DNA of 64,000 nucleotides from Pristiophorus japonicus. Lineage: Eukaryota. Below, one piece after another: positions 1,044 through 54,109 of the stretch. Below the pieces are notes generated by a model. That model did not search any database. It was not told the DNA's origin and was given only the letters and a program-made list of their open reading frames with translations. Position 1 is the stretch's first letter. Every line of letters starts with the position of its first letter. The translations under genes were made by a program, and so were the position numbers. The stretch covers positions 131,006,001 through 131,070,000 of the forward strand of contig NC_091993.1 in NCBI RefSeq assembly GCF_044704955.1, in the 5' to 3' direction.

Positions 1044-1370
1044 TGTTAGAGAATTCAAGCTCTGCAGCCCGGCTGCAGTTTTGAAAAAAAACACAGACCA
1101 CACTGCATTAAGTCATCAACTTGACATTTTAGGACCTTTGGGTAGTGAGCCAATTAAAGGTTAACAGACTATTAATTGAGCCAATGAGATCAAAGAAGGC
1201 GAGTTCTTTTCTGTAAACTGATCAGGTATATAAACAGCCATTTTGGCAATGTGGTCTCAGAAGGACAAAGGCCTGGCTTAAAGCCAAGAGCTTGTTGCTG
1301 TTGCCAGAATAAAATTACATTAAAACTACAACCGGAGTTCGTATTTCATTGGAAATTAAGAGATCTAACA
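1044..1370 (+). repeat. ERV 5' LTR (327 bp)
   Basis: TGTTAGA...TCTAACA inverted ends; two GAGCCAAT boxes; TATATAAA 1227-1234; AATAAA 1308-1313; direct repeat of 8303-8628. Confidence 0.96.
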
Positions 1371-1374
1371 ATTT

Positions 1375-1392
1375 TGGCGTCACGAACACGAT
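1375..1392 (+). promoter_or_regulatory. Primer binding site, tRNA-Ser(CGA)-like
   Basis: TGGCGTCACGAACACGAT lies 4 nt after the LTR. It matches 17/18 to the complement of a vertebrate tRNA-Ser(CGA) 3' end as I recall it (TGGCGTCACGAACAGGAT). Confidence 0.8.
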
Positions 1393-1657
1393 CGCTGAGG
1401 GAAGAAACTGAATTTTGGACATCGGACCTACATACTGAGGTAAGGACTCCTCTTTATAAAAGTCCTCGGTCAAAAGTCTAAATTCGCTTCTCCTTCTACA
1501 CAATTCTGAATGCCTCCGGTTTGCGAACCCTCCGGTTGGTAGTCGGCTCGAGGTCCCATAGACGTCTAACTTCGGCGGTGTGTTAGTTAATTAATCACCG
1601 ACCTACTGATCGGCTGGAAAGCCTACGACTCGAGACCCCAGTAAAGAAATCAGTATT

Positions 1658-3214
1658 ATGGCAGCAGGAGACAAGAACAAAGAATGGCCTACAACTGTTA
1701 AAGGCGGGCAGGCACCACCTGAGGTTTCGATAGATGAAATCCTCCAACAGTTGAAAGAATACATAGAGCAACAATTCAACTTATCTAAAACCTGTATTAA
1801 GATCGAACAAAAGTACGGAACCTCCAAAGGACAATGGTCCTTGGACGAGATTAAAAGGGTCTGGGGAAAAACGACCCGTATGAAAAATAAAGAGCGAACC
1901 AGATGGTCCCTAGCCGTTATGGGACAGATTCGAAAGCGGAATGAAATTATAATGCGTTCCCAACATGATCGAGAACTGACCAGTACAAAAGGACCAACTG
2001 CTTGTGCACAGCTGCGACAGACAAGACTTGAACTTGAAAAATCGGAAGCGGAAGTTAAAGATCTTAAAGATGAAATTAAAGAATGGAAAAAATCATTAGG
2101 TCAAGAGACAGTAATAGGAAAAGGAAAATGTATCGGTCAATTCCCAGGGTACCCATGTTTGGATAAATTAAAAGCGCAAACGCGAAGACACGACCGAGGA
2201 ATAGATACGGATTCTGAATCCTCCGACAATACAGGATCGGAGGATGAAGAATTAGGGGTGAGCTTTGCCCAGTTTAAAAAAAGACGCGGTGTAGTCAAAT
2301 CAGAAGAGACTGCGGATGAGGACGGAACCAAAAAAACAAAGAAAAGGGTGTATGCAGAATATTTAGTTCATGATCCGGCAGACCCAGAGAAAATTGATAA
2401 ATGGTCCAAGGAGTTGCCCAATCCAAAGAAAGGGGGAGTGAAAACGTGGGACCAATTGGACCGCTCAAGAAATATATATCAACTTCATCCCTGGGACGGA
2501 GTGCAAATTTTGACCATAATGGTGCCAAAAACGCAGGGAAGAAAATTGCACGACAAGGTAGATGAAGCTTTGGGGCAGGATGAGCAAGAATTAGACACAG
2601 GATGGGAAGCGATTAAACACTGGCTGCAAGCCTTCAGTCCAGCTAAGACAGACTGGGGAAAAATTGCAGCCTGCCAACAGAAAGAAACAGAGGAGGTCCT
2701 GGAGTATGACGAGCGGTTTAGATGTACGTGGCTAGAACATTCGGGTATGAATAATACGGATGAGGAAATGGATGAACAAGTGTTTGGACCCCTGAAAGCC
2801 ACTTTCGTGGCAGGTCTAAAGCCAGAACTGTCCAAAATGCTTTAGGTAGTGTTAACGGACTGGGAAGGTAGAGGAACTACCTTTGCAGCATTGTTGGATC
2901 GATGTAACCAATTAGATCGGGATATGGGAGCTAAAGTCCGAGCTGTACAGACTATGGGATGCAAATCCCAGGATTCCAATAAACAGTTATCTGGAAAATT
3001 ACCTGGAAAATGTCATTATTGTGGGAAAGAAGGTCACTGGGCCAAGACGTGCAGGGCAAAACAGAAAGGTCGTGGCTGGGGAAGAGGACGCAGCCAGGGA
3101 TACAATTCAGCCAACAAGCCAGGCTTGTCACAAGATAACGATCTCATAGAAGCATTTAAGCGACTGACAATACAACAACAGAAGGAGTTACTTGGGATAG
3201 CAAAAAACGATTAG
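1658..3214 (+). pseudogene. gag: ERV gag (about 518 codons, one in-frame TAG at 2843-2845)
   Basis: ORFs 1658-2845 and 2849-3214 share a frame. MHR-like QQKETEEVLEYDERF, single CCHC knuckle CHYCGKEGHWAKTC, and YPxL-like motif YPCL. Confidence 0.9.
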
Positions 3215-6200
3215 AGCCCACCCTGGCCCCCCTCCTCGCACTAATACAACAGAGAGGAGATGGGCTATATACAACTGTGAGGGTGGGCGATAAGGATGTG
3301 GACTGTCTTTTAGACACTGGGGTGGAATTAACATGCTTACCCCTACAATATGGAGACTTTTTGCCGTTGGATGGTAGGGCACGTACAGCCTATGGAGTTG
3401 GGGGCCATAAAATGGAAATTAAAAAGGACAACACCGGTATTTATAGGGCTGGGTCCACATGAACTAACCACACCGGTCTGGATAGGCCCAGTAGATCAAC
3501 CCCTTTTGGAAATGGACGTTCTAATCCAAGTAGATTCATCGTTGCATTTCGAGGATGGTCGGGTGACATGGTCAATTAGAACTTTGAAGAAAGAAGAATT
3601 GAAGGAACACCCGATATGGGCTAAAGATAAGAATGATTGTGGCCTACTCCAGATGGAGCCTGCGTCATTTACCGGGACCAAGCCTCCATGCACTAAACAG
3701 TATCCCATCAGTCCAACTGCCATCGCGGGAATCTTACCGGTTATTCAGCAATTGGAGAAACAAGGGGTGCTTATTAAAATGCATAGCTCCTCCAATAGCC
3801 CCGTGTGGCCGGTACAGAAATCTAATGAGACTTGGCGTTTGACTGTCGATTATAGGAAAGCTAACCAGTGTATTGATCAAAAAGCTCCTTTGGTCGCAGA
3901 TCCCTCCACCATTTTTAATGCCCTCAAACCGGAACATAAATATTTCTCGGTTATAGATATGGCCAACGGATTTTGGTCGGTGCCTCTAGCACCGGAGGTT
4001 CGACAGTGGTTTGCTTTCACGGTCCAAGGACAATAGTATACTTGGACCCGGTTACCGCAGGGTTTCCACAACAGCCCTACGGTATTCCACATGGCTTTAC
4101 AAAGCTATTTGCGAGGATTACCTCCCCTGTCATCCAATATGTAGACGATATCCTGCTAGCTTCAAACACAGAAGAACAGCATGAACAAGATTTACGAGCT
4201 TTGCTGAACCACCTTCGGCTGAAAGGACATAAAGCCAGCATCGACAAAGCACAAATATCCCAAGAAGAGGTTGTATACCTGGGACAAAAGATTTCACAAG
4301 GAGAGAACTTACCCAGGATAGAACTTACCCATTCTGCCTGCTAAAAACCCCACCACTATTCAGGTACTAAGGTCTTTTTGGGGATTGTGTAACTTTAACA
4401 GAAATTGGATTGACTCCTTCACACAGCTTGCTCAGCCACTCAATGATATTTTAAAGGGGAAACGTGCCTCTAAAGAAGCCATCACCCTCATTAAGGAACA
4501 GCAAGAGGCCTTCCTGAGTTTGAAAAAGGCTTTGTGTTCGGCACCGGCTCTGGGAATCCCCGACAGTGGTAAGCCATTTACCCTGTTTGTCCATGAGAAA
4601 GAAGGATACATAACAGCTATACTGACACAAGAACATGGGGATCGGCAAAGACCTATTGGCTATTATTCGGCAAAACTGGATGCGGTAGCCCTTGGATGGG
4701 GAAGTTGCCTAAGGGCCATGGAAGCTACATGTCGAGCGGTAATGATCACTGCGGGTCTAGTCCTCGACCAAAAGCTGATTGTCAAGTGTCCCCACACCGT
4801 ACACGCTTTGCTGTCTATGAATAGAATGTCTCAGGTGACAGCAGCAAGATGGACCCGCTGGACAGCAGTTTTGGAAGCTCCTAATCTCCATATCGTCCGG
4901 GCCAGCCCGGTTAATCCCGCAACCATGCTCCCGATGTCAGAATCAAGGGAGCAAGAGGGGGGAGAATGTGAAGAGCATGACTGCATGGAGATTTTAAAAG
5001 AAACAGAAGAAGCAGCCTTAGCAGCAGAGGAGCCTCTGCACAACCCAGACCTCATCCTGTTTACAGATGGTTCCTCCTTTGTTGACAATGGTACCAGAAA
5101 AGCAGGATGGGCAGTTACAACCTTATATGAGGTAGTAGCAAAAGGATGTTTACCCTCAGTTACGGGCCCTGTCAGAAGCATGTCGAATAGCAGAAGGACA
5201 GACAGCCAAGGTCTACTCAGATTCGCGTTATGCTTTTGGAGTCGCTCACGACTTTGGTCTGTTATGGCGGAAAAGAGGATTCCTCACTGCTGCTGGTATA
5301 CCTATCCGAAATGGAAAAGAAGTCCGAGACTTACTAGAGACCATACAATTACCTCAGGAAGTGTCCATCCTGAAGTGTAAGGCACATACCAAGGAAAATA
5401 CCACGGAAGCACAGGGAAATGCCCTAGCCGACCAGGCAGCTAAAGATGCCGCCTCACAGGGTGTTCCCCCAGAAGAACCAACACAGATGTACAGATTGAA
5501 AGCACTCAGGACTCTGACATGAGACCTTCAAACAATGCAAGGCGAGTGCTCCCGAGAGGAAAAATGGACATGGATTGAGGCAGGAATTAAGCTATGTGAA
5601 GATGGTGTCTGGAGACAAAGAGTTACCGACAAGCCAGTCACGCCACAAGCGCTTATGCCTTTTTTAGCCCAACAGATCCACTCGTGGGGACATTTGGCCT
5701 CACAACAGATGACAGCACAGTTCCAGAAAAGCTGGTGGGGTCGGGGATTTAAAAAACATGCCCAGCTGGTAACAGACCGCTGTGTGGTCTGCCAGAAAAA
5801 TAATTCTGGACCCATCACGCTAATGTCCCAACTGAGGCCCCCTGCCCCTGTTGGACCATTCCAGCATCTGCAGGTTGATTATATATCTCTTCCTTCATGC
5901 CAAGGATACACTAACATTCTTGTCATGGTCGACAGATTCTCTAGATGGGTAGAAGCTGTCCCAACTAAAAGAGCCACAGCCAATCACACTGCAAAGGTCT
6001 TGTGTAAGGATTACATTCCCCGATGGGGAGTCCAGAGTAGCATTGACTCAGATCAGGGAACACACTTCACAGGTGCTGTCTGCCAAGAAGTCTGTAGGTT
6101 ACTGAACATTACGTGGGATTTACACTGTCCTTATCATCCACAATCATCAGGACAAGTAGAGCGAATGAATCGAACTCTGAAACAACAGCTTGCCAAATAT

Positions 6201-6650
6201 CACCAAGAAGGATCACCATGGCCCCAGGCACTACCAATAGTGCTATGTAGCATTAGGGCAACCCTGAACAGAACTACAGGTCTAAGCCCATTTCAAATTA
6301 TAACAGGAAGACCCATGTCGCTGCCAGGAACTATCGATTTACGGAAAGCTGATGTTCACTTAATGAGTGACACTTTGTTATCATACTGTCAGAACCTAAC
6401 CAATGCTATTAGTTCTGTTTCTCGACAGGTATCGGCAGCTTGGGGTAATCCACCCGAAGGAGGACACGACATTATCCCGGGAGTCTGGGTGTATGTGAAA
6501 AAGTTGCATAAAGAACTTTTGGGTGCCAAGTGGGAGGGACCTCATCAAGTATTATTGACCACCCAGGCAGCTGTTAAAGTCCAAGGAAAGAAAGCCTGGA
6601 TCCACACTTCACACGTTAAACAAGCACCCGTAACTGAAGCTGAAATCTAA
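3208..6650 (+). pseudogene. pol: ERV pro-pol (protease, RT, tether, RNase H, integrase) with several frameshifts and stops
   Basis: LLDTG protease; LPQGFHNSP and QYVDD in RT; FTDGSS and DSRYAF in RNase H; HHCC, D-D-E (QVDY, SDQGTHF, QVERMN) and GPH module in integrase ORF 5535-6650. Confidence 0.95.
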
Positions 6651-6674
6651 TAAGGACAATTACTTTTTGCGAAA

Positions 6675-7923
6675 ATGTATAAATTTACTGCATTACTGAT
6701 TGTAGGTATTCTAGGCATAGGCCTACTTCTTACTAGCCGACCCTCTGTACCAAAGGGAAATAGTAGGGTAGCAAGGGAATTACATGTAAATACCTTTTTA
6801 TATATATCATACATTTATGCCAAACAAGGTAACATTTCGAGTTGTTGGGTGTGTGCGCATATTCCTATTCACTCAAAGGGAGGGATTCCCTTGAGGCCAG
6901 TTCCCTTGAATATCTCGGAAATGGCTGAGTGGATAATTAATCAAAACAAAACAGGCAATGCGTTTCAGGATTCGGAGAACTGGGCACGTAAATGGAAGTC
7001 AGCAGGTTACAATCTGACTACCTTTGAAGGGGGATACCAACCGTGCTACAATAATTCCAAACGGCCCCCATTTTTTGTTATCACTAATACAACGGGAATA
7101 GGAAGACCGGGGGAATCCGTCTGTCTGATTAGAAACATTAAAGGAGGCCAAAATATGGGGTGTAGCAACTGCTCCCGGAATTATAATGTAACCAAGCCAC
7201 GGAACCGTCCAAACTGGGCCGATGTGGGAATTTTTAAACGCACCAGGGATTCTGAATAAAAAAGATGGAAAAGCTTGGACAGGCCCCGGAGTGTTGCTGA
7301 CAAAGAAACAGCTAACATTCATTGCCTATAATGGCACCTATTGGGTGTGTGGCCACAAGGCCTACCCTTGGCTGCCCCAGAATTGGACGGGATCCTGCTA
7401 TTTAGCCTACATTGTGCCTTATATGTATCATATAGAGTCACTGTCGGAACATTTACACTGTCCTAAGAGAGCTATCACAGAAACAGAGAGGTTCTTTGCC
7501 ATTCTGATCCCCGGGTATGGGACCACCAGACTGGCAAGGGAATCCATTAACATGGCATCCGTTGTGCAACGGGTAGCCAATGATACCTCAGAGGCCCTAG
7601 TTAAAATCAATGCAGAAATGGTAGCAATCCGCTCAGTAGCCCTACAGAATAGACTGGCCCTTGATTCCATCCTGGCTGAAAAGGGAGGTACTTGCGCCCT
7701 ACTCGGAACTGAGTGTTGCACATATATCCCAGATAGCTCCGAAGAAATGACCCACTTAGCGGAGCATATCCAAAAGGAGGTAGAAAAACTTAAGCAACCC
7801 CCATCATTCACTTTGTGGAGTGGAGCCACTGAATGGCTAGGTTCAATAGGAACTTCATTGGTGGAAGGTTTAATTCTATTTGTTGTAATTGTTTTATTTA
7901 TATTGTTTGATTATGTTGATTAA
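6675..7923 (+). pseudogene. env: ERV env, gamma-type (frameshift near 7222-7259)
   Basis: Signal-like hydrophobic N-terminus; SU CWVC (CxxC); cleavage site CPKR/AITE; immunosuppressive domain LQNRLALDSILAEKGG; CX6CC (CALLGTECC); C-terminal TM anchor. Confidence 0.93.
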
Positions 7924-8291
7924 AATGTTGTTGCGACCAGGCGGCTGTAGCTGCTGTCCCGCAGGTGAGACACCTTGCAGGTCCCAGCAGACCGTCTGTA
8001 CGTGGCACAGGGGTATATTATGCTTAAGGGAAGGTTGTTTACTGGTTGAATTAAGATATTGATTTGGATTAAATTGGAATAAGGTTAATCAACCTACTAA
8101 AACCAGACTTCCATTGTGGCCACGATGGAATTCAGATTGGTGTAAATTTGTGTGGAAGTTACTAGTCCGGACTTGTGGTGAAACACATCAACAAATTTTA
8201 GAAGGAAACTCTATTAACATGTATGAAATTATTTTTTAGAATGTTTAACCAGTGATACCTGATGTTTTATGATTCAGTTTGTGAAAGAATC

Positions 8292-8300
8292 AAAGGGGGG
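8292..8300 (+). promoter_or_regulatory. ERV polypurine tract
   Basis: AAAGGGGGG followed by AT, then the LTR start TG. Confidence 0.85.
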
Positions 8301-8302
8301 AT

Positions 8303-8628
8303 TGATAGAGAATTCAAGCTCTGCAGCCCGGCTGCAGTTTTGAAAAAACACAGACCACACTGCATTAAGTCATCAATCAACTTGACATTTTAGGACCTTT
8401 GGGTAGCGAGCCAATTAAAGGTTAACAGACTATTAATTGAGCCAATGTCAAAGAAGGAGAGTTCTTTTCTGTAAACTGATCAGGTATATAAACAGCCATT
8501 TTGGCCATGTGGTCTCAGAAGGACAATGGTCTGGCTTAACGCCAAGAGCTTGTTGCTGCTGCCAGAATAAAATTACATTAAAACTACAACCAGAGTTCGT
8601 ATTTCATTGGAAATTAAGAGATCTAACA
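8303..8628 (+). repeat. ERV 3' LTR (326 bp)
   Basis: Matches the 5' LTR with 9 substitutions and 3 short indels (manual count). Confidence 0.96.
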
Positions 8629-11047
8629 AGAGGATTTCCTGGAGTGTATAAGAGATGGATTTCTAGATCAATATGGAACCAACTGGAGAGCAGGCCATCC
8701 TAGACTGGGTCTTGTGTAATGAGAAAGGACTAATTAGCAATCTTGTGCGAGACCCCTTGGGGAAGAGTGACCATGATATGGTAGAACTCTTCATTAAGAT
8801 GGAGTGTGACAGTTAATTCAGAGACTAGGGTCCTGAACTTAAAGAAAGGTAACTTCGATGGTATGAGATGTGAATTGGCTAGGATAGACTGGCAAATGAT
8901 ACTTAAAGGGTTGACGGTAGATAGGCAATGGCACACATTTAAAGATCACATGGATGAACTACAACAATTGTACATCCCTGTCTGGCGTAAAAATAAAACA
9001 GGGAAGGTGGCTCAACCGTGGCTAACAAGGGAAATTAAGGATAGTGTTAAATCCAAAGGAAGAGGCATATAAATTGGCCAGGAAAAGCAGTAAACCTGAG
9101 GACTGGGAGAAATTTCGAATTCAGCTGAGGAGGACTAAGGGTTTAATTAGAAGTGGGGGGTGAAATAGAGCATGAGAGTAAGCTTGCAGGGAATATAAAA
9201 ACTGATTGCAAAAGCTTCTATAAATATATGGAGAGAAAAAGATTAGTGAAGACAAATGTAGGTCCCTTGCAGTCAGAATCAGGTGAATTCATTATGGGGA
9301 ACAAGGAAATAGCAGACCAATTGAACAAATACTTTGGTTCCGTCTTCACTGAGGAAGACACGAATAACCTCCCGAAAATACTAGGGGACCGAGGGTCTAG
9401 CGAGAAGGAGGAACTGAGGGAACTCCTTATTAGTCAGGAAATGGTGTTAGGGAAATTGATGGGATTGAAGGCCAATAAATCCCCAGGCCTGATAGTCTGC
9501 ATCCCAGAGTACTTAAGGAAGTGGCCCTAGAAATAGTGGATGCATCGGTGGTCATTTTCCAACATTCCATGAACTTTGGATCAGTTCCTATGGACTGGAG
9601 GGTAGCTAATGTAACCCCACTTTTTAAAAAAAAGGAGAGAGACAGAAAACAGGGAATTATAGACCGATTAGTCTGACATCAGTAGTGGGGAAAATGCTGG
9701 AATCAATTATTAAAGATGTAATAGCAACGCATTTTGAAAGCAGTGACATGATCAGTCCAAGTCAGCATGGATTTATGAAAGGGAAATCAAGCTTGACAAA
9801 TCTTCTAGAATTTTTTTGAGGATGTAACTAGTAGAGTGGATAAGGGAGAACCAGTGGATGTTGTGTATTTGGACTTTAAAAAGGCTTTTGAGAAGGTCCC
9901 ATACAAGAGATTAGTGTGCAAAATTAAAGCACATGGGATTGGGGGTAATGTATTGACATGGATAGAGAACTGGTTGACAGACAGGAAGCAAAGAGTGGGA
10001 ATAAACAGGTCCTTTTCAGAATGGCAGGCAGTGACTAGTGGGGTACCGCAAGGTTCAGTGCTGGGACCCCAGCTATTTACAATATATATATATAATATAA
10101 ATGATTTAGAGAAAGGAATTGAATGTAATATCTCCAAGTTTGCAGATGACACTAAGCTGGGTGGCGGTGTGAGCTGTGAGGAGGATGCCAAGAGGCTGCA
10201 GGGTGACTTGGACAGGTTATGTGAGTGGGCAAATGCATGGCAGATGCAGTATAATGTGGATAAATGTGAGGTTATCCACTTTGGTGGCAAAAACAGGAAG
10301 GCAGATCATCTGAATGGTGACAGATTAGTAAAAGGGGAGGTACAAGAAGACCTGGGTGTCATGGTACATCAGTCATTGAAAGTAGGCATGCAGGTACAGC
10401 AGGCGGTGAAGAAAGCAAATGGCATGTTGGCCTTCTAATGAGAGGATTTGAGTATAGGAGCAGGGAGATCTTGCTGCAATTGTACAGGGCCTTGAATATT
10501 GTGTTCAGTTTTGGTCTCCTAATCTGAGGAAGGACATTCTTGTTATTGAGGGAGTACAGCGAAGGTTCACCAGACTGATTCCCGGGATGGCAGGACTTAC
10601 ATATGAGAGACTGGATCGACTGGGCTTGTATTCACTGGAATTTAGAAGAATGAATGAATGAGAGGGGATCTCATAGAAGCATATAAAATTCTGACGGGAT
10701 TTGAGAGGTTGGATGCAGGAAGAATGTTCCCGATATTGGGGAAGTCCAGAACCAGGGGTCACAGTCTAAGGATAAGGGGTAAGCCATCTAGGACCGAGAT
10801 GAGGAGAAACTTTTTCCACTCAGAGAATTGTGAACCTGTGGAATTCTCTACCACAGCAAGTTGTTGAAGCCAGTTCGTTGAATATATTCAAAAGGGAGTT
10901 AGATGTGGCCCTTACGGCTAAAGGATCAAGGAGTATGGAGAGAAAGCAGGAAAAGGATACTGAAGTCGCATGATCAGCCATGATCATATTGAATGGTGGT
11001 ACAGGCTCAAAGGGCTGAATGGCCTGCTCCTGCACCTATTTTCTATG
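8629..11047 (+). mobile_element. CR1 LINE, 3' part (ORF2 RT, degenerate) with 3' tail
   Basis: VYLDFKKAF, GVPQGSVLGP, KFADDTK; ends ...CCTATTTTCTATG; continues the element at 1-1043. Confidence 0.93.
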
Positions 11048-15557: not shown

Positions 15558-15952
15558 TCCAGCACCAGCCAGCACCCATAGACCCCAAGCACCGATGGGA
15601 CCCAAACTCTAGCACCCATGGACCCCCAGCATGCATCAGCACTTATGGAACCCATACTCTAGCACCCATGGTTCCCCAGCATGTGTCAGCACCCATGGAA
15701 CCCCAGCACCCAGCACCAGACAGCACCCATGGAACCCCAGCATGTGTCAGCACCCATGGAACCCCAGCACCCAGCACCAGACAGCACCCATGGAACCACA
15801 GCACGTGTCAGCACCCATGGAACCACAGCACGTGTCAGAACCCATGGAACCCGTATTCCAGCACCCAAGGAACCCCAGCATGCGCCAGCACCCATACTCC
15901 AGCACACATGGTACCCCAACATGTGTCAGCACCCATGGAACTCCAGTACCAG
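15558..15952. repeat. Degenerate minisatellite, about 28-34 bp units with core CAGCACCCATGGAACCCCAGCA
   Basis: About 12 visible repeats of the core. Confidence 0.85.
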
Positions 15953-16742
15953 CCCACATCTTCGGGACAGAAGAGGAAAACCGAGACGGTTATAAAGCAA
16001 GAACAAACCAAGAAAGACATCTCTGAAATTCCTTCCCAGGTTGCTTCCTAAACGTTTTTAGAAGGGTGTGGGGTCAGTGGGACGACATATCAAGATTAGA
16101 TAAATCACGTCTCCTGAAAGTGCACACATAACTCCTGCACATTCTGTGGCAGCCAAACCCAAGTGCAGAATTTACAGAACTCTGTGTTAATCTGTCCATT
16201 TTAAAATCAATTTGAAAATATTCCTTAGTTACAAGGAAGCTGTCATGATAAATTAAGACACAATATAGGATCAAGTTCTGATGAATTTGCAGTAAGTTGC
16301 TGCTTTTTGAACCTTTACCCCTTCCAACACAAAATAAAACTTTTACGCCTTCCTACTGAAAGATGCTTTCATTACACCATCTGAACTGCATTTAAACCCA
16401 GGTTTCACAGCTTTAACAACCTGTGCTGTCACCGAAACCAAATAGTCCCCGCTTTATCCAATAATTCATAATGTCTCGTAAATCTATCCTTCCTGCCACC
16501 CAGTGGCAAAGTTTGAACTTTACATCCACACGTGCAACTCGATGATCAAGTTTATCCTTAATTGCAAAACACTGTACAACAAAGGCATGCAACCTGCAGC
16601 TCGCAGCACACATGCAGCTCCTGAACCTGGCCAATTTATTCCTGTATTTCTTGCTCGCTGACTTGTCCTGTTTGTGGCTCCTTAACTGATAGACAAATTC
16701 TAAACCAAGATCTGTTGGCATCTGCAACTTGAGATATAAAGA

Positions 16743-41989: not shown

Positions 41990-44150
41990 CACAGCTGACC
42001 CTGCCATTATCTTCCGGCCACATCCACAGCAGAGCTAAACCCGCCTCTTTCCACCTGTGTAACATCGTCTGTCTCTGCCCCGCCTCAGCTCATCCGCTGC
42101 TGAACCCCTCATCACTGCCTTTGTTACCTCCAGACCTCACTACTCCAACACACTCCTGGCCGGCCTCCCACATTCTACCCGACGTAAACTCGAGGACATC
42201 CAAAACTCGGCTGCCCCATGTCCGAACTCACACCCAGTCCCGCTCACCCATCACCCCTGTGCCCCGTGTCCTAACTCGCACCCAGTCCCGCTCACCCATC
42301 CCCCCTGTGCCCCGTGTCCGAACTCGCACCCAGTCCCACTCACCCATCACCCCCTGTGCCCCGTGTCCGAACTCGCACCGAGTCCCGCTCACCCATCCCC
42401 CCTGTGCCCCGTGTCCTAACTCGCACAGAGTCCCACTCACCCATCACCCCCTGTGCTCACTGCCCCGTGTCCGAACTCGCACCCAGTCCCACTCACCCAT
42501 CACCCCCTGTGCTCCGTGTCCTAACTCGCACAGAGTCCCACTCACCCATCACCCCCTGTGCTCCGTGTCCGAACTCGCACCCAGTCCCACTCACCCATCA
42601 CCCCCTGTGCTCACTGCCCCGTGTCCGAACTCGCACCCAGTCCCACTCACCCATCACCCCCTGTGCCCCGTGTCCGAACTCGCACCCAGTCCCACTCACC
42701 CATCACCCACTGTGCTCACTGCCCCGTGTCCGAACTCGCACCCAGTCCCACTCACCCATCACCCCCTGTGCCCCGTGTCCGAACTCGCACCCAGTCCCAC
42801 TCACCCATCACCCCCTGTGCTCACTGCCCCGTGTCCTAACTCACACCCAGTCCCACTCACCCATCACCCCCTGTGCCCCGTGTCCGAACTCGCACCCAGT
42901 CCCACTCACCCATCACCCCCTGTGCTCGCTGCCCCGTGTCCGAACTCGCACCCAGTCCCACTCACCCATCACCCCCTGTGCTCACTGCCCCGTGTCCTAA
43001 CTCACACCAAGTCCCACTCACCCATCACCCCCTGTGCATCGTGTCCGAACTCGCACCGAGTCCCGCTCACCCATCACCCCCTGTGCTCACTGACCCGTGT
43101 CCTAACTCGCACCGAGTCCCACTCACCCATCACCCCCTGTGCTCACTGCCCCGTGTCCTAACTCACACCGAGTCCCGCTCACCCATCACCCCCTGTGCCC
43201 CGTGTCCTAACTCGCACCGAGTCCCGCTCACCCATCACCCCCTGTGCTCACTGCCCCATGTCCTAACTCGCACCGAGTCCCACTCACCCATCACCCGCTG
43301 TGCTCACTGCCCCGTGTCCGAACTCACACCCAGTCCCACTCACCCATCACCCCCTGTGCCCCGTGTCCTAACTCGCACCGAGTCCCGCTCACCCATCACC
43401 CCCTGTGCTCACTGACCCGTGTCCTAACTCACACCGAGTCCCGCTCACCCATCACCCCCTGTGCCCCGTGTCCTAACTCGCACCGAGTCCCGCTCACCCA
43501 TCACCCCCTGTGCTCACTGACCCGTGTCCTAACTCTCACCGAGTCCCGCTCACCCATCACCCCCTGTGCCCCGTGTCCTAACTCGCACCCAGTCCCGCTC
43601 ACCCATCACCCCCTGTGCTCACTGCCCTGTGTCCTAACTCGCACCCAGTCCCGCTCACCCATCACCCCCTGTGCTCACTGCCCCGTGTCCTAACTCGCAC
43701 CCAGTCCCGCTCACCGACCTACATTGGCTCCTGATTAAGCAGCGCCTCGATTTCAAAATTCTCATCCTTGTTTTCAAATCCCTCTATGACCTCGACCCTC
43801 CCTATCTCTAATCTCCTCCAGCCATCCCCCCCCCCCCCCCCACAACGAGATATCTGCACTCCTCTAATTCTGCCCTCTTGAGCATCCCTGATTGTAATCG
43901 CTCCACCATTGGTGGCTGTGCCTTCTGTTGCCTGGGCCCCCAAGCTCTGGAACTCCCTGCCTAAACCTCTCTACCTCTCTTTCCTCCTTCAAGATGCTCC
44001 TTAAAACATACATCTTTGACCAATCTTTTGGGTACCTGCTCTCATTTCTACTTGTGTGGCTCGGTGTTACATTTTTAGTGCATAATAATCCTTTGAAGCG
44101 CCTTGGGACGTTTCACTACATTAAAGGTGCTATATAAATGCAAGTTATTG
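41990..44150 (+). mobile_element. L2 3' fragment with internal tandem expansion
   Basis: L2 sequence up to ...CCAAAACTCGGCTGCCC, then the array, then resumes GACCTACATTGGCTCC through the 3' tail. Confidence 0.88.
42212..43715. repeat. L2-derived minisatellite 1 (49- and 56-bp units, about 28 copies)
   Basis: CCCCGTGTCC(G/T)AACTCGCACCCAGTCCCACTCACCCATCACCCCCTGTG(CTCACTG) repeated. Confidence 0.95.
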
Positions 44151-44472
44151 TTCATTCCATTTTTGTCTATCTATTCGTAGCCAGAGAATCACCTGCAACG
44201 GCTTCTCTTCCTGCCTCCGCATCGTTACCTCTGGTTTCCCCCAAGGATCTGTCCTTGGCCCCTCCTATTTCTCATCTACATGTTGTCCCTCGGCGATATC
44301 ATCTGAAAACAGAGTCAGTTTCCACATGTACGCTGACGACACCCAGCTGTACCTCACCACCACTTCTCTCGATCCCTCCACGGTCTCTAAATTGTCAGAC
44401 TGCTTGTCCAACATCCAGTTCTGGATGAGCAGAAGTTTCCTCCAATTAAATATTGGGAAGACCGAAGCCATT

Positions 44473-45096
44473 GGGCTGGATTTTCACTCTTCTGCCTCTG
44501 TTAGCGCCCCAGAGGGGTGGCAATGGCGACGATAAGCACTTCTGGGCGGGCGGGCAGCTTGCAGTGTCCCGCCGGGACATTCGGAGCCGGTTTGGATGGG
44601 TCGCAGAGCAGTACCGCCCGGGAGACTGGAGACGGGAGACGGTGTACAATGTCCCTGGTTGTGACACCGACTCGATTTTTGGTTGCCACCCGACCCGTAG
44701 CACTCTGTAGAGCACCCTGTTGGGACCGCCTGTGGAAGCTGGCGCTCTGAGCTGTAGCGGCTGTCGTGAGGTAAGTTATGTCGACCTCAGGTGAGCGTAT
44801 TATTTTTTTTGCGATTTATGTTGTGGTGGCTTGAGTTATGTATTGGGAATGTTTTCGGTGTTATTTTTTCAGGTTCCCCCGCGCCCCGAGTCCTCTCTTA
44901 TGGCGCTCCGAGTCCAGCTGTTTAGTTTGTGATTTTCGCTTGCTCAGCCGGCCTCGTGCCCTAAAAGAGGTGTGCAACTCCTCACTTCGCGATCCGCTCC
45001 AAACTCCGGGCTCAGCTGATGAATTATGCGGCGGCAGTTGCAGACTTTACCACCCAGGACAACGCCGCAACAGAGGCGCGGCCGAATTTCTCCCCC
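44473..45096. mobile_element. Non-autonomous DNA transposon (PIF/Harbinger-like MITE), 624 bp
   Basis: Cleanly interrupts the L2 codons for EAI/VFGP; ATT on both sides (44470-44472 and 45097-45099); GGG...CCC ends with weak TIRs; CpG-rich. Confidence 0.7.
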
Positions 45097-45413
45097 ATTG
45101 TCTTTGGTCCTCGCCACAACCTCTGTTCCCTCGCCACCGACTCCATCCCTCTCCCGAGCATCTGTCTGAGGCTGAACCAGCCCTTCGCAACCTTCGCAAC
45201 CTTGACCCTGAAACGACCACATATTCTAAAACTAACTAAAACCCGCCTATTTCCACCTCTGTAACATCGCCCATCTCCACCCCGCCTTAGCTCATCCACT
45301 GCTAAACCCCTCATCCGTGCCTTTGTTATCTCTAGACTTCACTACTCCAATGTACTCCTGGCTGGCCTCCCACATTCTACCCTATGCAAACATGAGGTCA
45401 TCCAAAATTCGGC

Positions 45414-46735
45414 AGCCCGTGTCCTAACTCACACCGAGTCCCGCTCACCCATCATCCCCTGTGCTCACTGACCCGTGTCCTAACTCACCCCCAGTCCCGC
45501 TCACCATCACCCCCTGTGCTCACTGCCCATGTCCTAACTCACGCCCATGTCCTAACTCACACCCAGTCCCACTCACCATCACCCCCTGTGCTCACTGCCC
45601 GTGTCCTAACTCACACCCAGTCCCGCTCACCATCACCCGCTGTGCTCACTGCCCCGTGTCCTAACTCACACCCAGTCCCGCTCACCCATCATCCCCTGTG
45701 CTCGCTGCCCCGTGTCCTAACTCACACCCAGTTCCGCTCACTCATCATCCCCTGTGCTCGCTGCCCCGTGTCCTAACTCACACCCAGTCCCGCTCACTCA
45801 TCATCCCCTGTACTCACTGCCCGTGTCCTAACTCACACCCAGTCCCACTCACCATCACCCCCTGTGCTCACTGCCCGTGTCCTAACTCACACCCAGTCCC
45901 GCTCACCATCACCCGCTGTGCTCGCTGCCACGTGTCCTAACTCACCATCATTCCTTGTGCTCGCTACCCTGTGTCCTAACTCGCACCAAGTCCCACTCAC
46001 CCATCACCGCCTGTGCTGACCCGTGTCCTAACTCACACCCAGTCCCGCTCACCATCACCCGCTGTGCTCGCTGCCACGTGTCCTAACTCACCCAGTCCCG
46101 CTCACTCATCATCCCCTGTGCTCACTGCCCCGTGTCCTAACTCACAACCAGTCCCGCTCACCATCATTCCTTGTGCTCGCTACCCTGTGTCCTAACTCGC
46201 ACCAAGTCCCACTCACCCATCACCGCCTGTGCTGACCCGTGTCCTAACTCACACCCAGTTCCGCTCACGCATCACCCCCTGTGCTCACTGCCTCGTGTCC
46301 TAACTCACACCCAGTTCCGCTCACTCATCATCCCCTGTGCTCACTGCCCCGTGTTCTAACTCACACCCAGTTCCGCTCACGCATCACCCCCTGTGCTCAC
46401 TGCCTCGTGTCCTAACTCACACCGAGTCCCACTCACCCATCACCCCCTGTGCTCACTGCCTCGTGTCCTAACTCACACCGAGTCCCACTCACCCATCACC
46501 CCCTGTGCTCACTGCCCCGTGTTCTAACTCACACCCAGTTCCGCTCACTCATCATCCCCTGTGCTCACTGCCCCGTGTTCTAACTCACACCCAGTTCCGC
46601 TCACCCATCACCCCCTGTGCTCACTGCCTGTGTCCTAACTCGCACCAAGTCCCGCTCACCCATCACCCCCTGTGCTCGTTGCCTGTGTCCTAACTCGCAC
46701 CAAGCCCCACTCACCCATCACCCCCCTGTGCTTGC
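45414..46735. repeat. L2-derived minisatellite 2 (about 24 copies, more diverged)
   Basis: Same L2 segment as in array 1, tandemly repeated. Confidence 0.95.
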
Positions 46736-51700: not shown

Positions 51701-53551
51701 TTTTGTTTTTTGCCTTGGGTTTCTCTGTCCTCCACTTTTACTATTCTCCTTTCTATCTTTTGCTTCTGCCTCCATTTTATTTCTCTCTGTCTCCCTGCAA
51801 AGGTTCCCATCCCCCTGTCATGTTAGTTTAACTCCTCCCCAACAGCACTAGCAAACACTCCCCCTAGGACATTGGTTCCGGTCCTGCCCAGGTGTAGACC
51901 GTCCGGTTTGTACTGGTCCCACCTCCCCCAGAACCGGTTCCAATGTCCCAGGAATTTGAATCCCTCCCTGCTGCACCACTCCTCAAGCCACGTATTCATC
52001 TGAGCTATCCTGTGATTCCTACTCTGACTAGCACATGGCACTGGTAGCAATTCTGAGATTACTACTTTTGAGGTCCTACTTTTTAATTTAGCTCTTAGCT
52101 CCCTACATTCGTCTCATAGGACCTCATCCTGTTTTTTTACCTATATTGTTGGTACCTAAAAGCACCACGACAACTGGCTGTTCACCCTCCCTTTTCAGAA
52201 TGTCCTGCACCCACTCCGAGACATCCTTGACCCTTGCACCAAGGAGGCAACATACCATCCTGGAGTCTCGGTTGCGGCCGCAGAAACGCCTATCTATTCC
52301 CCTTACAATTGAATTCCCTATCACTATCGCTCTCCCACTCTTTTTCCTGCCCTCCTGTGCAGCAGAGCCAGCCACGGTGCCATGAACTTGGCTGCTGCTG
52401 CCCTCCCCTGATGAGTCATCCCCCTCAACAGTACCCAAAGCGGTGTATCTGTTTTGCAGGGGGATGACCGCAGGGGACCCCTGCATTACCTTCCTTGTAC
52501 TGCTCTTCCTGTTGGTCACCCATTTACTATCTGGCTGTGTACCCTTTACCTGCAGTAAGACCAACTCACTAAACGTGCTGTTCACATCATTCTCAGCATC
52601 GTGGATGCTCCAGAATTCATCCACCTGCAGCTCCAGTGCCGCAATGCTGTCCGTCAGGAGCTGCAGGTGGATACACTTCCCGCACACGTAGTCGTCAAGG
52701 ACACCGGAAGCGTCCCTGACTTCCCACATAGTACAGGAGGAGCATAACACGTGTCTGAGCTGTCCTGCCATGACTTAACCCCTAGATAGATTTAATTTGT
52801 CAACAACAATGCTAAATGTTACTTACTGATAAAGAAAAGAAAAAAGAAAAGCTGCTTACCAATCACCAGCCAATCATTTACCCCCTTGGCTGTGATGTCA
52901 CCTTTTGATTTCTTTCTACTTCTTTTTTGCCTTCTCTCCCAGCTGCAGCTACACAAGCTCCGCCTTTATAGGGCACTCGCCTCCCGCCTCCAGACTGCTG
53001 CCGCTCGCCTCGAACTGTTGGGCCTTTATAGGGCACTCGCCTCCCGCCTCCAGACTGCTGCCGCTCGCCTCGAACTGTTGGGCCTTTATAGGGCACTCTC
53101 CTCCCGCCTCCCGCCTGCTGCCGCTCGCCTCGAACTGTTGGGCACTCGCCTCCCGCCTCCCGACTGCTGCCGCTCGCCTCGAACTGTTGGGCCTTTATAG
53201 GGCACTCGCCTCCCGAACTCCCGCCTGCTGCCGCTCGCCTCGAACTGTTGGGCCTTTATAGGGCACTCGCCTCCCGAACTCCCGCCTGCTGCCGCTCGCC
53301 TCGAACTGTTGGGCCTTTATAGGGCACTCTCCTCCCGCCTCCAGACTGCTGCCGATCGCCTCGAACTGTTGGGCCTTTATAGGGCACTCGCCTCCCGCCT
53401 CCCGCCTGCTGCCGCTCGCCTCGAACTGTTGGGCCTTTATCGGGCACTCGCCTCCCGCCTCCAGACTGCTGCCGCTCGCCTCGAACTGTTGGGCCTTTAT
53501 AGGGCACTCTCCTCCCGACTCCCGCCTGCTGCCACTCGCCTCGAACTGTTG
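48785..53551 (-). mobile_element. Full-length CR1 LINE (5' tandem monomers, ORF1, ORF2, tail); ORFs disrupted
   Basis: ORF1 51823-52771 (Cys finger CSSC...CGKC, esterase VIGNSIVRG, DGLHL); ORF2 fragments 49034-51650; tail at 48785. Confidence 0.94.
52962..53551 (-). repeat. Ten tandem ~60-bp monomers at the CR1 5' end
   Basis: Unit GCCTTTATAGGGCACTCGCCTCCCGCCTCCAGACTGCTGCCGCTCGCCTCGAACTGTTGG on +. Confidence 0.93.
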
Positions 53552-54109
53552 GGAGCCCGAGTAAAACTGAAGTCAATGGAAATCAGAGGGAAAACTCTCC
53601 ACTGGCTGGAGTCATACCCAGCACAAAGGAAAGATGGTTGTGGTGGTTGGAGGTCAATCATCACAGCCCCAGGACATCGCTGCAGGAGTTCCTCAGGGCA
53701 GTGTCATAGGCCCAACCATCTTCAGCTGCTTCATCAATGACCTTCCTCCATCATAAGGTCAGAAGTGGGGATGTTCGCTGATGATTGCACAGTGTTCAGT
53801 TCCATTCGTAACTCCTCAGATAATGAAGCAGTCTGTGCCTGCATGCAGCAAGACCTGGACAACATTCAGGCTCGGGCTGATAAGTGGCAAGTAACATTCA
53901 CACCACACAAGTGCCAGGCAATGACCATCTCCAACAAGCGAGAGTCTAACCACTGCCCCTTAACATTCAATGGCATTACCATCGTCGAATCCCCCACCAT
54001 CAACATCCTGGGGCACCATTGACCAGAAACGTAACTGGAGCAGCCACATCAATAACTGCTGGCCTTGCAGGGACACCCACTTCCCAGGAACAAATAATAA
54101 AAAAGGAAA

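Follow-up and report, generated by a model that had tools for sequence, protein, structure and literature searches.

The 64,000 nucleotides (nt) of Pristiophorus japonicus DNA considered here (NCBI RefSeq assembly GCF_044704955.1, contig NC_091993.1, forward-strand positions 131,006,001 to 131,070,000; the whole stretch is called the window, and positions are counted from its first letter) host a full-length, decayed provirus of an endogenous retrovirus (ERV) at 1044-8628. Its layout is that of a vertebrate retrovirus, with the order long terminal repeat (LTR)-primer-binding site-gag-pol-env-LTR, a tether and RNase H in Pol and a retroviral transmembrane (TM) part in Env (Table 1). The present account is centred on the point where gag gives way to the protease region, pro. 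In particular, the stretch 3202-3288 would work as a gag-pro programmed -1 ribosomal frameshift signal, a reading to which we assign a probability of roughly 85% on the basis of the sequence, of modelled RNA folding and of comparison with other copies and relatives.

The last codons of gag read GCA AAA AAC GAT TAG, with the stop (3212-3214) one codon past a slippery heptamer. Reading of the gag codons bears out the X XXY YYZ phase that a preliminary description had ascribed to this AAAAAAC, and its other two statements on the junction hold in a frame check: the -1 frame leads without a stop into the protease, being open here from as early as 3160 and on past the motif DCLLDTG, and translation in frame 0 past the gag TAG meets a TAA after nine codons. 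The +1 frame contains stops as well. In other words, of the three frames only -1 continues into the protease, gag and pol overlapping by about two codons, and no ATG occurs in the -1 frame from 3160 to the DTG motif. Broken as this piece is, its protease matches in Pfam are weak (E 0.012-0.028), but the DTG region aligns with intact relatives. Moreover, the C-terminal half of the protease and the reverse transcriptase (RT) share one frame (3332-4036), and the relatives P0003, P0005, P0025 and L002 have protease and RT in a single open reading frame (ORF), so that a single shift would be enough for Pro-Pol, as in human immunodeficiency virus (HIV). Both AAAAAAC and GGGAAAC are among the retroviral slip sites in the table of PMC3835772. 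Heptamers of XXXYYYZ type occur 26 times in the provirus, so the heptamer alone is not beyond chance; the one at 3202-3208 is set apart by its place at the end of gag, by its phase and by a downstream fold of -38.1 kcal/mol, stronger than that behind any other of the 26 (next -28.6).

Table 1. Features of the provirus and of its gag-pro junction (window coordinates)
Feature	Position	Strand	Remarks
5' LTR	1044..1370	+	327 nt; aligns to the 3' LTR with 313 matches, 9 mismatches and a few gaps
Primer-binding-site-like sequence	1375..1392	+	from sequence
gag, one CCHC knuckle	1658..3214	+	zf-CCHC E 1e-4; in-frame stop 2843-2845 breaks this copy
Slippery heptamer A_AAA_AAC	3202..3208	+	gag phase, last codons Ala-Lys-Asn; no variant row there among aligned contigs
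7-nt spacer containing the gag stop TAG (3212-3214)	3209..3215	+	from sequence and fold
Predicted stimulatory stem	3216..3288	+	3216-3224/3280-3288 (9 bp, G+C-rich), 3225-3229/3262-3266 and 3232-3237/3254-3259; pair probabilities 0.75-1.0
pro-pol: protease, RT, tether, RNase H, integrase with MLVIN_C	3208..6650	+	starts in the -1 frame; this copy broken by several frame changes and a stop
env, gamma-type TM (TLV_coat)	6675..7923	+	E 2.3e-18; broken in this copy
3' LTR	8303..8628	+	326 nt; purine-rich tract just upstream

A canonical -1 signal carries a stable RNA structure 5-9 nt downstream of the slip site. The structure predicted here starts 7 nt 3' of the heptamer, in agreement with that spacing, and its basal helix joins GCCCACCCU (3216-3224) to AGGGUGGGC (3280-3288) in the fold of 3209-3295. 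The full fold of this segment reaches -38.1 kcal/mol (z -4.2), none of 200 shuffled sequences being equally stable, and it ranks first of 2500 among sliding 87-nt windows of the provirus, a length picked after the fold had been seen. The preliminary description had proposed two helices, whose four hexamers all lie at the coordinates it gave. Its inner helix, CTCCTC/GAGGAG (3232-3237/3254-3259), is retained in the new fold; its outer helix, AGCCCA/TGGGCT (3215-3220/3261-3266), has a pair probability of 0.0 in the ensemble of 3209-3295 and does not belong to the minimum-energy fold, the structure containing it reaching -16.0 kcal/mol versus -36.8 for the nested stem. The stimulator is thus predicted to be a long nested stem, not the helix pair first proposed and probably not a compact pseudoknot, and the junction appears as a well-formed candidate -1 frameshift signal, better than first described once the stem is corrected. 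A search of Rfam returned three chance-level matches, none at the junction.

A genuine -1 shift stimulated by a pseudoknot, in which 3215-3220/3261-3266 is crossed by 3233-3240/3276-3283, or the basal helix pairs up with a downstream partner, is a variant of the preferred interpretation and compatible with it. Crossing helix pairs do exist, with summed stack energies of -19.3 for the helix of the preliminary description and, when the basal helix is combined with 3226-3230/3319-3323, of up to -26.2, and the majority of the retroviral signals in the table of PMC3835772 are pseudoknots. The nested stem, however, is much more stable (-36.8) and occupies the same bases, and the loops would measure 12 and 20 nt, as opposed to the compact knot of mouse mammary tumour virus (MMTV) type. 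The enumeration of helices, based on summed stack energies, prefers the nested stem over a compact H-type pseudoknot, and we consider the knotted variant unlikely, even though it is the most credible of the alternatives.

If the junction operates as a -1 frameshift signal, ribosomes decoding AAA AAC would pause on meeting the predicted stem, which begins 7 nt further on. A small share of them would shift back by one base, re-reading AAA AAC as AAA AAA, and would then proceed with CGA TTA GAG into protease, RT and integrase, all three of which lie in a single frame in relatives, while the remaining ribosomes would finish Gag at the TAG within the spacer. Slippage of tRNA-Lys and tRNA-Asn would produce an ...AKN-RLEPT... 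junction, and one shift would serve all of Pro-Pol. Sites of the A_AAA_AAC, G_GGA_AAC or U_UUA_AAC type may be used in this way across the shark-teleost lineage described below.

Given the stop in gag and the breaks in pol and env, the frame relation of this copy is not trustworthy without other copies. Contigs of four runs were aligned to 3000-3500 (80% likeness, 5% share): 2832 from X1 (72% of the run read), 10 from X5, which carries a different organism label, 14 from X6 and a single one, off the junction, from X9. The variant rows over this segment comprise 16 substitutions and one indel, which lies about 210 nt downstream, inside the protease, where the copy in the window is broken; between 3000 and 3420 no indel was found in the aligned contigs of X1, X5 and X6. 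The extra indel placing pro in frame with the gag TAG, which the preliminary description had named as evidence to the contrary, is therefore not seen. The junction is bridged by single contigs in X5 (3162-3500) and X6 (3078-3486), each with one gap. Heptamer and basal helix are free of variants among the aligned contigs, from which rare variants are dropped, and the lone variant of the stem, at 3255, keeps the pairing as G-U by a one-sided change. The -1 phase is common to contigs of three runs and two organism labels and is not a lesion private to this copy.

The relatives of the element extend the comparison beyond one family. Of 726 candidates, 32 proteins match the RT piece, and for 29 of these the identity is 56-68%; those with names come from Astyanax, Coilia, Cyprinus and serrasalmids. 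The zf-CCHC family is listed for none of the 32, and most of the 19 that were read begin at or after the protease, P0009 and P0018 having Gag sequence in front. Gag itself was followed with a four-row profile, which gave 7 proteins plus 961 representatives, the best 150 of the 961 being used. From 155 distinct identifiers 68 were kept; 76 had no knuckle, nine had tails of over 100 amino acids and two were too short upstream. In this set, Gag ends that a slippery heptamer could encode are found in 13 of 20 rows of the lineage versus 5 of 48 other rows (background 10%), with a Fisher p of 1e-5 that is not to be taken at face value, the rows being related and the group having been defined on a quickly built tree. 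Slip-compatible ends are also present in two of the dropped rows, P0148 (Callorhinchus, TKNA) and P0089 (Scyliorhinus, SKNY). Such ends are spread over about seven sublineages (K-N-x, E-K-N, Q-G-N twice, P-G-N, G-N-Q and L-L-N), and the G-N and L-N ends would suit G_GGA_AAC and U_UUA_AAC.

The Gags nearest to that of the window are from Callorhinchus and Scyliorhinus. The closest is P0148 of Callorhinchus milii, sister of the window at 98/89 and 92/86 in two trees; this entry, UniRef V9L759, is labelled 'RNA-binding protein 4' and is really a Gag C-terminal fragment of this lineage. Overall, the records of the lineage stem from Astyanax, Coilia, Cyprinus, Misgurnus, Siphateles, Cirrhinus, Onychostoma, Boreogadus, Scyliorhinus and Callorhinchus, in addition to the locus L002. 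A particular case is offered by P0076, whose Gag ends in QEKN*, and the fused P0009, which contains TGKKL: the two reconcile only in the -1 frame, as A_AAA_AAC or A_AAA_AAT, and the 32 possible words for this fit had no occurrence in 1482 control positions. The related Pol cluster of P0025 counts 3937 members in NCBI assemblies, as would be expected of a large family that amplified recently, and the Gag of this family likely ends in QEKN. Other searches added little: in the ESM Atlas P0071 looks like a retroviral Gag and nothing further, a search for longer homologues of the Gag C-terminal piece gave 73 candidates, none at E<=0.001, a scan of prokaryote genomes gave no match, and scans of viral contigs gave a single record, taken as snakehead retrovirus (SnRV), or nothing. 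As to the elephant-shark CmiERVs in supplement 1 of PMC4422223, neither of the sequences there is, by eye, this family, and the junction of scaffold 2 is too decayed to call.

A scan of metagenomes yielded three loci, L003 and L004 with weak RT matches and a useful one, L002, which has a homologous Gag and an RT 50-52% identical, both open. In L002 gag and pro lie in the same frame across TGA-CTAG (L002:1020-1045), with neither a heptamer nor a strong stem at the junction (z 0.65). UGA-CUAG is a known readthrough context in the passages of PMC13517186 that deal with it. By eye, the residues after the L002 stop (LETP) resemble those after the slip site of the window (RLEPT). The Gag tree joins L002 and P0092 (Boreogadus, ending TDLE) to three Gags with G-N ends (93/99), within a clade of 12 rows (98/98) to which the window also belongs, and a tree in which the other rows of the lineage are held together without L002 and P0092 is rejected by the approximately unbiased (AU) test (p 0.0019; p 0.0026 with a second tree). 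The groups were named after a tree had been seen, branches are long and L002 is one low-coverage contig, so that the nesting of L002 among slip-type Gags is to be held only as likely. Since L002 is in frame and yet appears nested among slip-type Gags, the expression strategy has likely switched inside this lineage.

Several observations weigh against a -1 signal at the junction. A close relative, L002, has an in-frame stop and no slip site, and seven of the 20 lineage Gags (P0069, P0072, P0088, P0090, P0091, P0092 and P0095) have ends that a slippery heptamer would not encode. Gag-end dipeptides leave the heptamer unfixed at the DNA level, and the relatives are not independent of one another; likewise, P0076 and P0009 are separate loci of one family and the origin of the P0009 fusion is not visible. 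The stem overlaps protease-coding sequence, so its folding may have other causes. One of the 16 variant sites falls within the 47 positions of the element versus 1.5 expected, with no covariation, which amounts to no evidence of selection on the stem. X1 possibly represents the source sample and, finally, the copy in the window is defective and perhaps never translated.

One rival reading is a decay artefact, in which an in-frame readthrough ancestor, like SnRV or L002, acquired a family-fixed indel that gave the -1 offset, heptamer and stem being coincidental. The many lesions of this copy and the abundance of heptamers (26 in the provirus) are in line with such a history, as is the in-frame arrangement of both L002 and the SnRV record, and according to PMC1224870 and PMC4724089 the gag-pro junction looks -1 in about 16-17% of human class I ERVs that have decayed. 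However, decay hardly accounts for a phase shared by three runs and two organism labels, for the strongest fold of the provirus lying 7 nt past the heptamer, or for slip-compatible Gag ends that recur in seven sublineages; moreover, a family with no route to Pol could amplify only with a helper. We therefore judge decay improbable. Still less probable is a separate Pol of foamy style, translated from a spliced mRNA or from a start of its own with no recoding needed for the offset, since, although RT and integrase match foamy-virus proteins best among solved structures and foamy pol has its own start in a different frame (passages of PMC8278194), the -1 frame holds no ATG before the DTG motif, Gag carries a CCHC knuckle that foamy and foamy-like fish Gags lack, and the in-phase heptamer and stem would be left unexplained. 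The core of the preliminary description, that a fish ERV outside class II expresses Pro-Pol by a -1 frameshift, is supported by phase, fold, comparison of copies and relatives.

With regard to placement, the structure matches of RT favour foamy virus (85 bits) over murine leukaemia virus (MLV, 67) and HIV (45), with no RT of MMTV or of human T-cell leukaemia virus (HTLV) in the best 60 of 204 rows. For integrase, prototype foamy virus (PFV) scores 95 bits versus 56 for Ty3, that is, the element is not Ty3/gypsy. The UAGGGC junction of a further record, L001, suggests that this is SnRV; the RT piece shares 42% identity with it (pairwise E 1e-36) and the integrase 31%. In L001 TAG-GGC is in frame and the junction has no unusual fold (z -1.3). 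An RT tree places the window with L001 at 95/99 versus three other RTs, in a tree without walleye dermal sarcoma virus (WDSV), ERV-L, MLV and MMTV and with L001 on a long branch; the place of L001 in the trees is unsettled. The element is likely an SnRV-related ERV, as judged from these similarities, and it is not kin to MMTV/HTLV. The marker of SnRV, gamma and epsilon viruses in Jern 2005, gag and pol in one frame with stop readthrough, is absent here. Readthrough being closed by the TAA, the element is filed with SnRV/clade Huo by sequence and not by the frame marker.

As for the remainder of the provirus and its surroundings, the primer-binding site is presumably tRNA-Ser-like, and a tRNA-Ser primer class is also reported for XtERV-S and HERV-S. 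The provirus splits an element with ORF pieces on both sides, which we take to be of the long interspersed nuclear element (LINE) type, and the flanks GGAGGA (1038-1043) and AGAGGA (8629-8634) resemble a target-site duplication of 5-6 nt. By eye, env is like that of elephant-shark CmiERV scaffold 2 (supplement of PMC4422223), gag and pol differing, which suggests an env common to different shark ERV lineages. Elsewhere in the window there are C-rich tandem arrays at 42200-46600, 52900-53600 and 15560-15960 (units of 49/56 nt, 60 nt and about 27/34 nt) and repeats scattered over 19-28 kb and 44-50 kb, and ARAGORN found no tRNA.

Retroviruses are split by their route to Pol in the passages of PMC13517186 and PMC1224870 that treat it, gamma, epsilon and SnRV using readthrough and alpha, beta, delta and lentiviruses frameshifting, and the latter paper terms this route a 'global' marker. 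Against this background the evidence is evenly balanced on a broader proposal: that a widespread, undescribed shark-teleost lineage on the snakehead/class III side frameshifts by -1 independently of class II, and that L002 and its cod-family relative were converted to UGA-CUAG readthrough. Pol strategy would then be no fixed marker, -1 frameshifting being maybe the older state and readthrough having had more than one origin. There is nothing unusual about the mechanism; the unexpected part is its position in the retroviral tree. If true, a natural switch from frameshift to readthrough would have been caught within one clade, and a -1 signal on the readthrough side with a nested readthrough relative would show that the marker flips. 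The homologous junction pair lets one ask how recoding mechanisms replace each other and which came first in retroviruses. In the literature searched no description of pol expression was found for the records of this lineage, nor any report of -1 frameshifting in it; the search covered parts of the sources, with Repbase reports and the supplements of ERV surveys outside it, and a prior mention is possible.

Compared with known systems, the junction was first called 'MMTV/HTLV-style', a label that holds for heptamer and spacing and fails for the single shift, the predicted long nested stem and an RT that is not class II. Specifically, MMTV, HTLV and bovine leukaemia virus (BLV) share AAAAAAC at the end of gag and a spacing of 6-7 nt (table of PMC3835772) versus 7 nt here; unlike the window, with its shared protease/RT frame, its predicted long nested stem as stimulator and its non-class II RT, they need a second, pro-pol shift (passages of PMC5009743). 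HIV-1 is similar in that one -1 shift yields Gag-Pro-Pol (same passages of PMC5009743) and in its stem-loop stimulator (excerpts of PMC4373837), and differs in its heptamer, UUUUUUA, in belonging to an unrelated branch and in the gag-pol overlap, which is of about two codons in the window. SnRV shares the single CCHC knuckle, and XtERV-S a class III-like pol with a gamma-type env TM; both, together with OVEX1, differ in having gag and pol, as described, in one frame with an intervening stop, in contrast with the -1 phase and slip site of the window. Anuran ERVs of the SnRV/class III side are also described as in frame. In decayed human class III ERVs the tallies given for gag-pro phase are mixed (12/16/9 for -1/0/+1), so that a -1 precedent may exist there. 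Foamy and foamy-like fish ERVs differ in a Gag without Cys-His box and a pol with its own start, as opposed to the zf-CCHC and the missing ATG before DTG here. Closest of all stand the shark and teleost ERVs of the lineage, with a homologous Gag whose C-terminal helix is shared and has K-N, G-N or L-N at its end, from the rest of which L002 departs by its in-frame UGA-CUAG junction.

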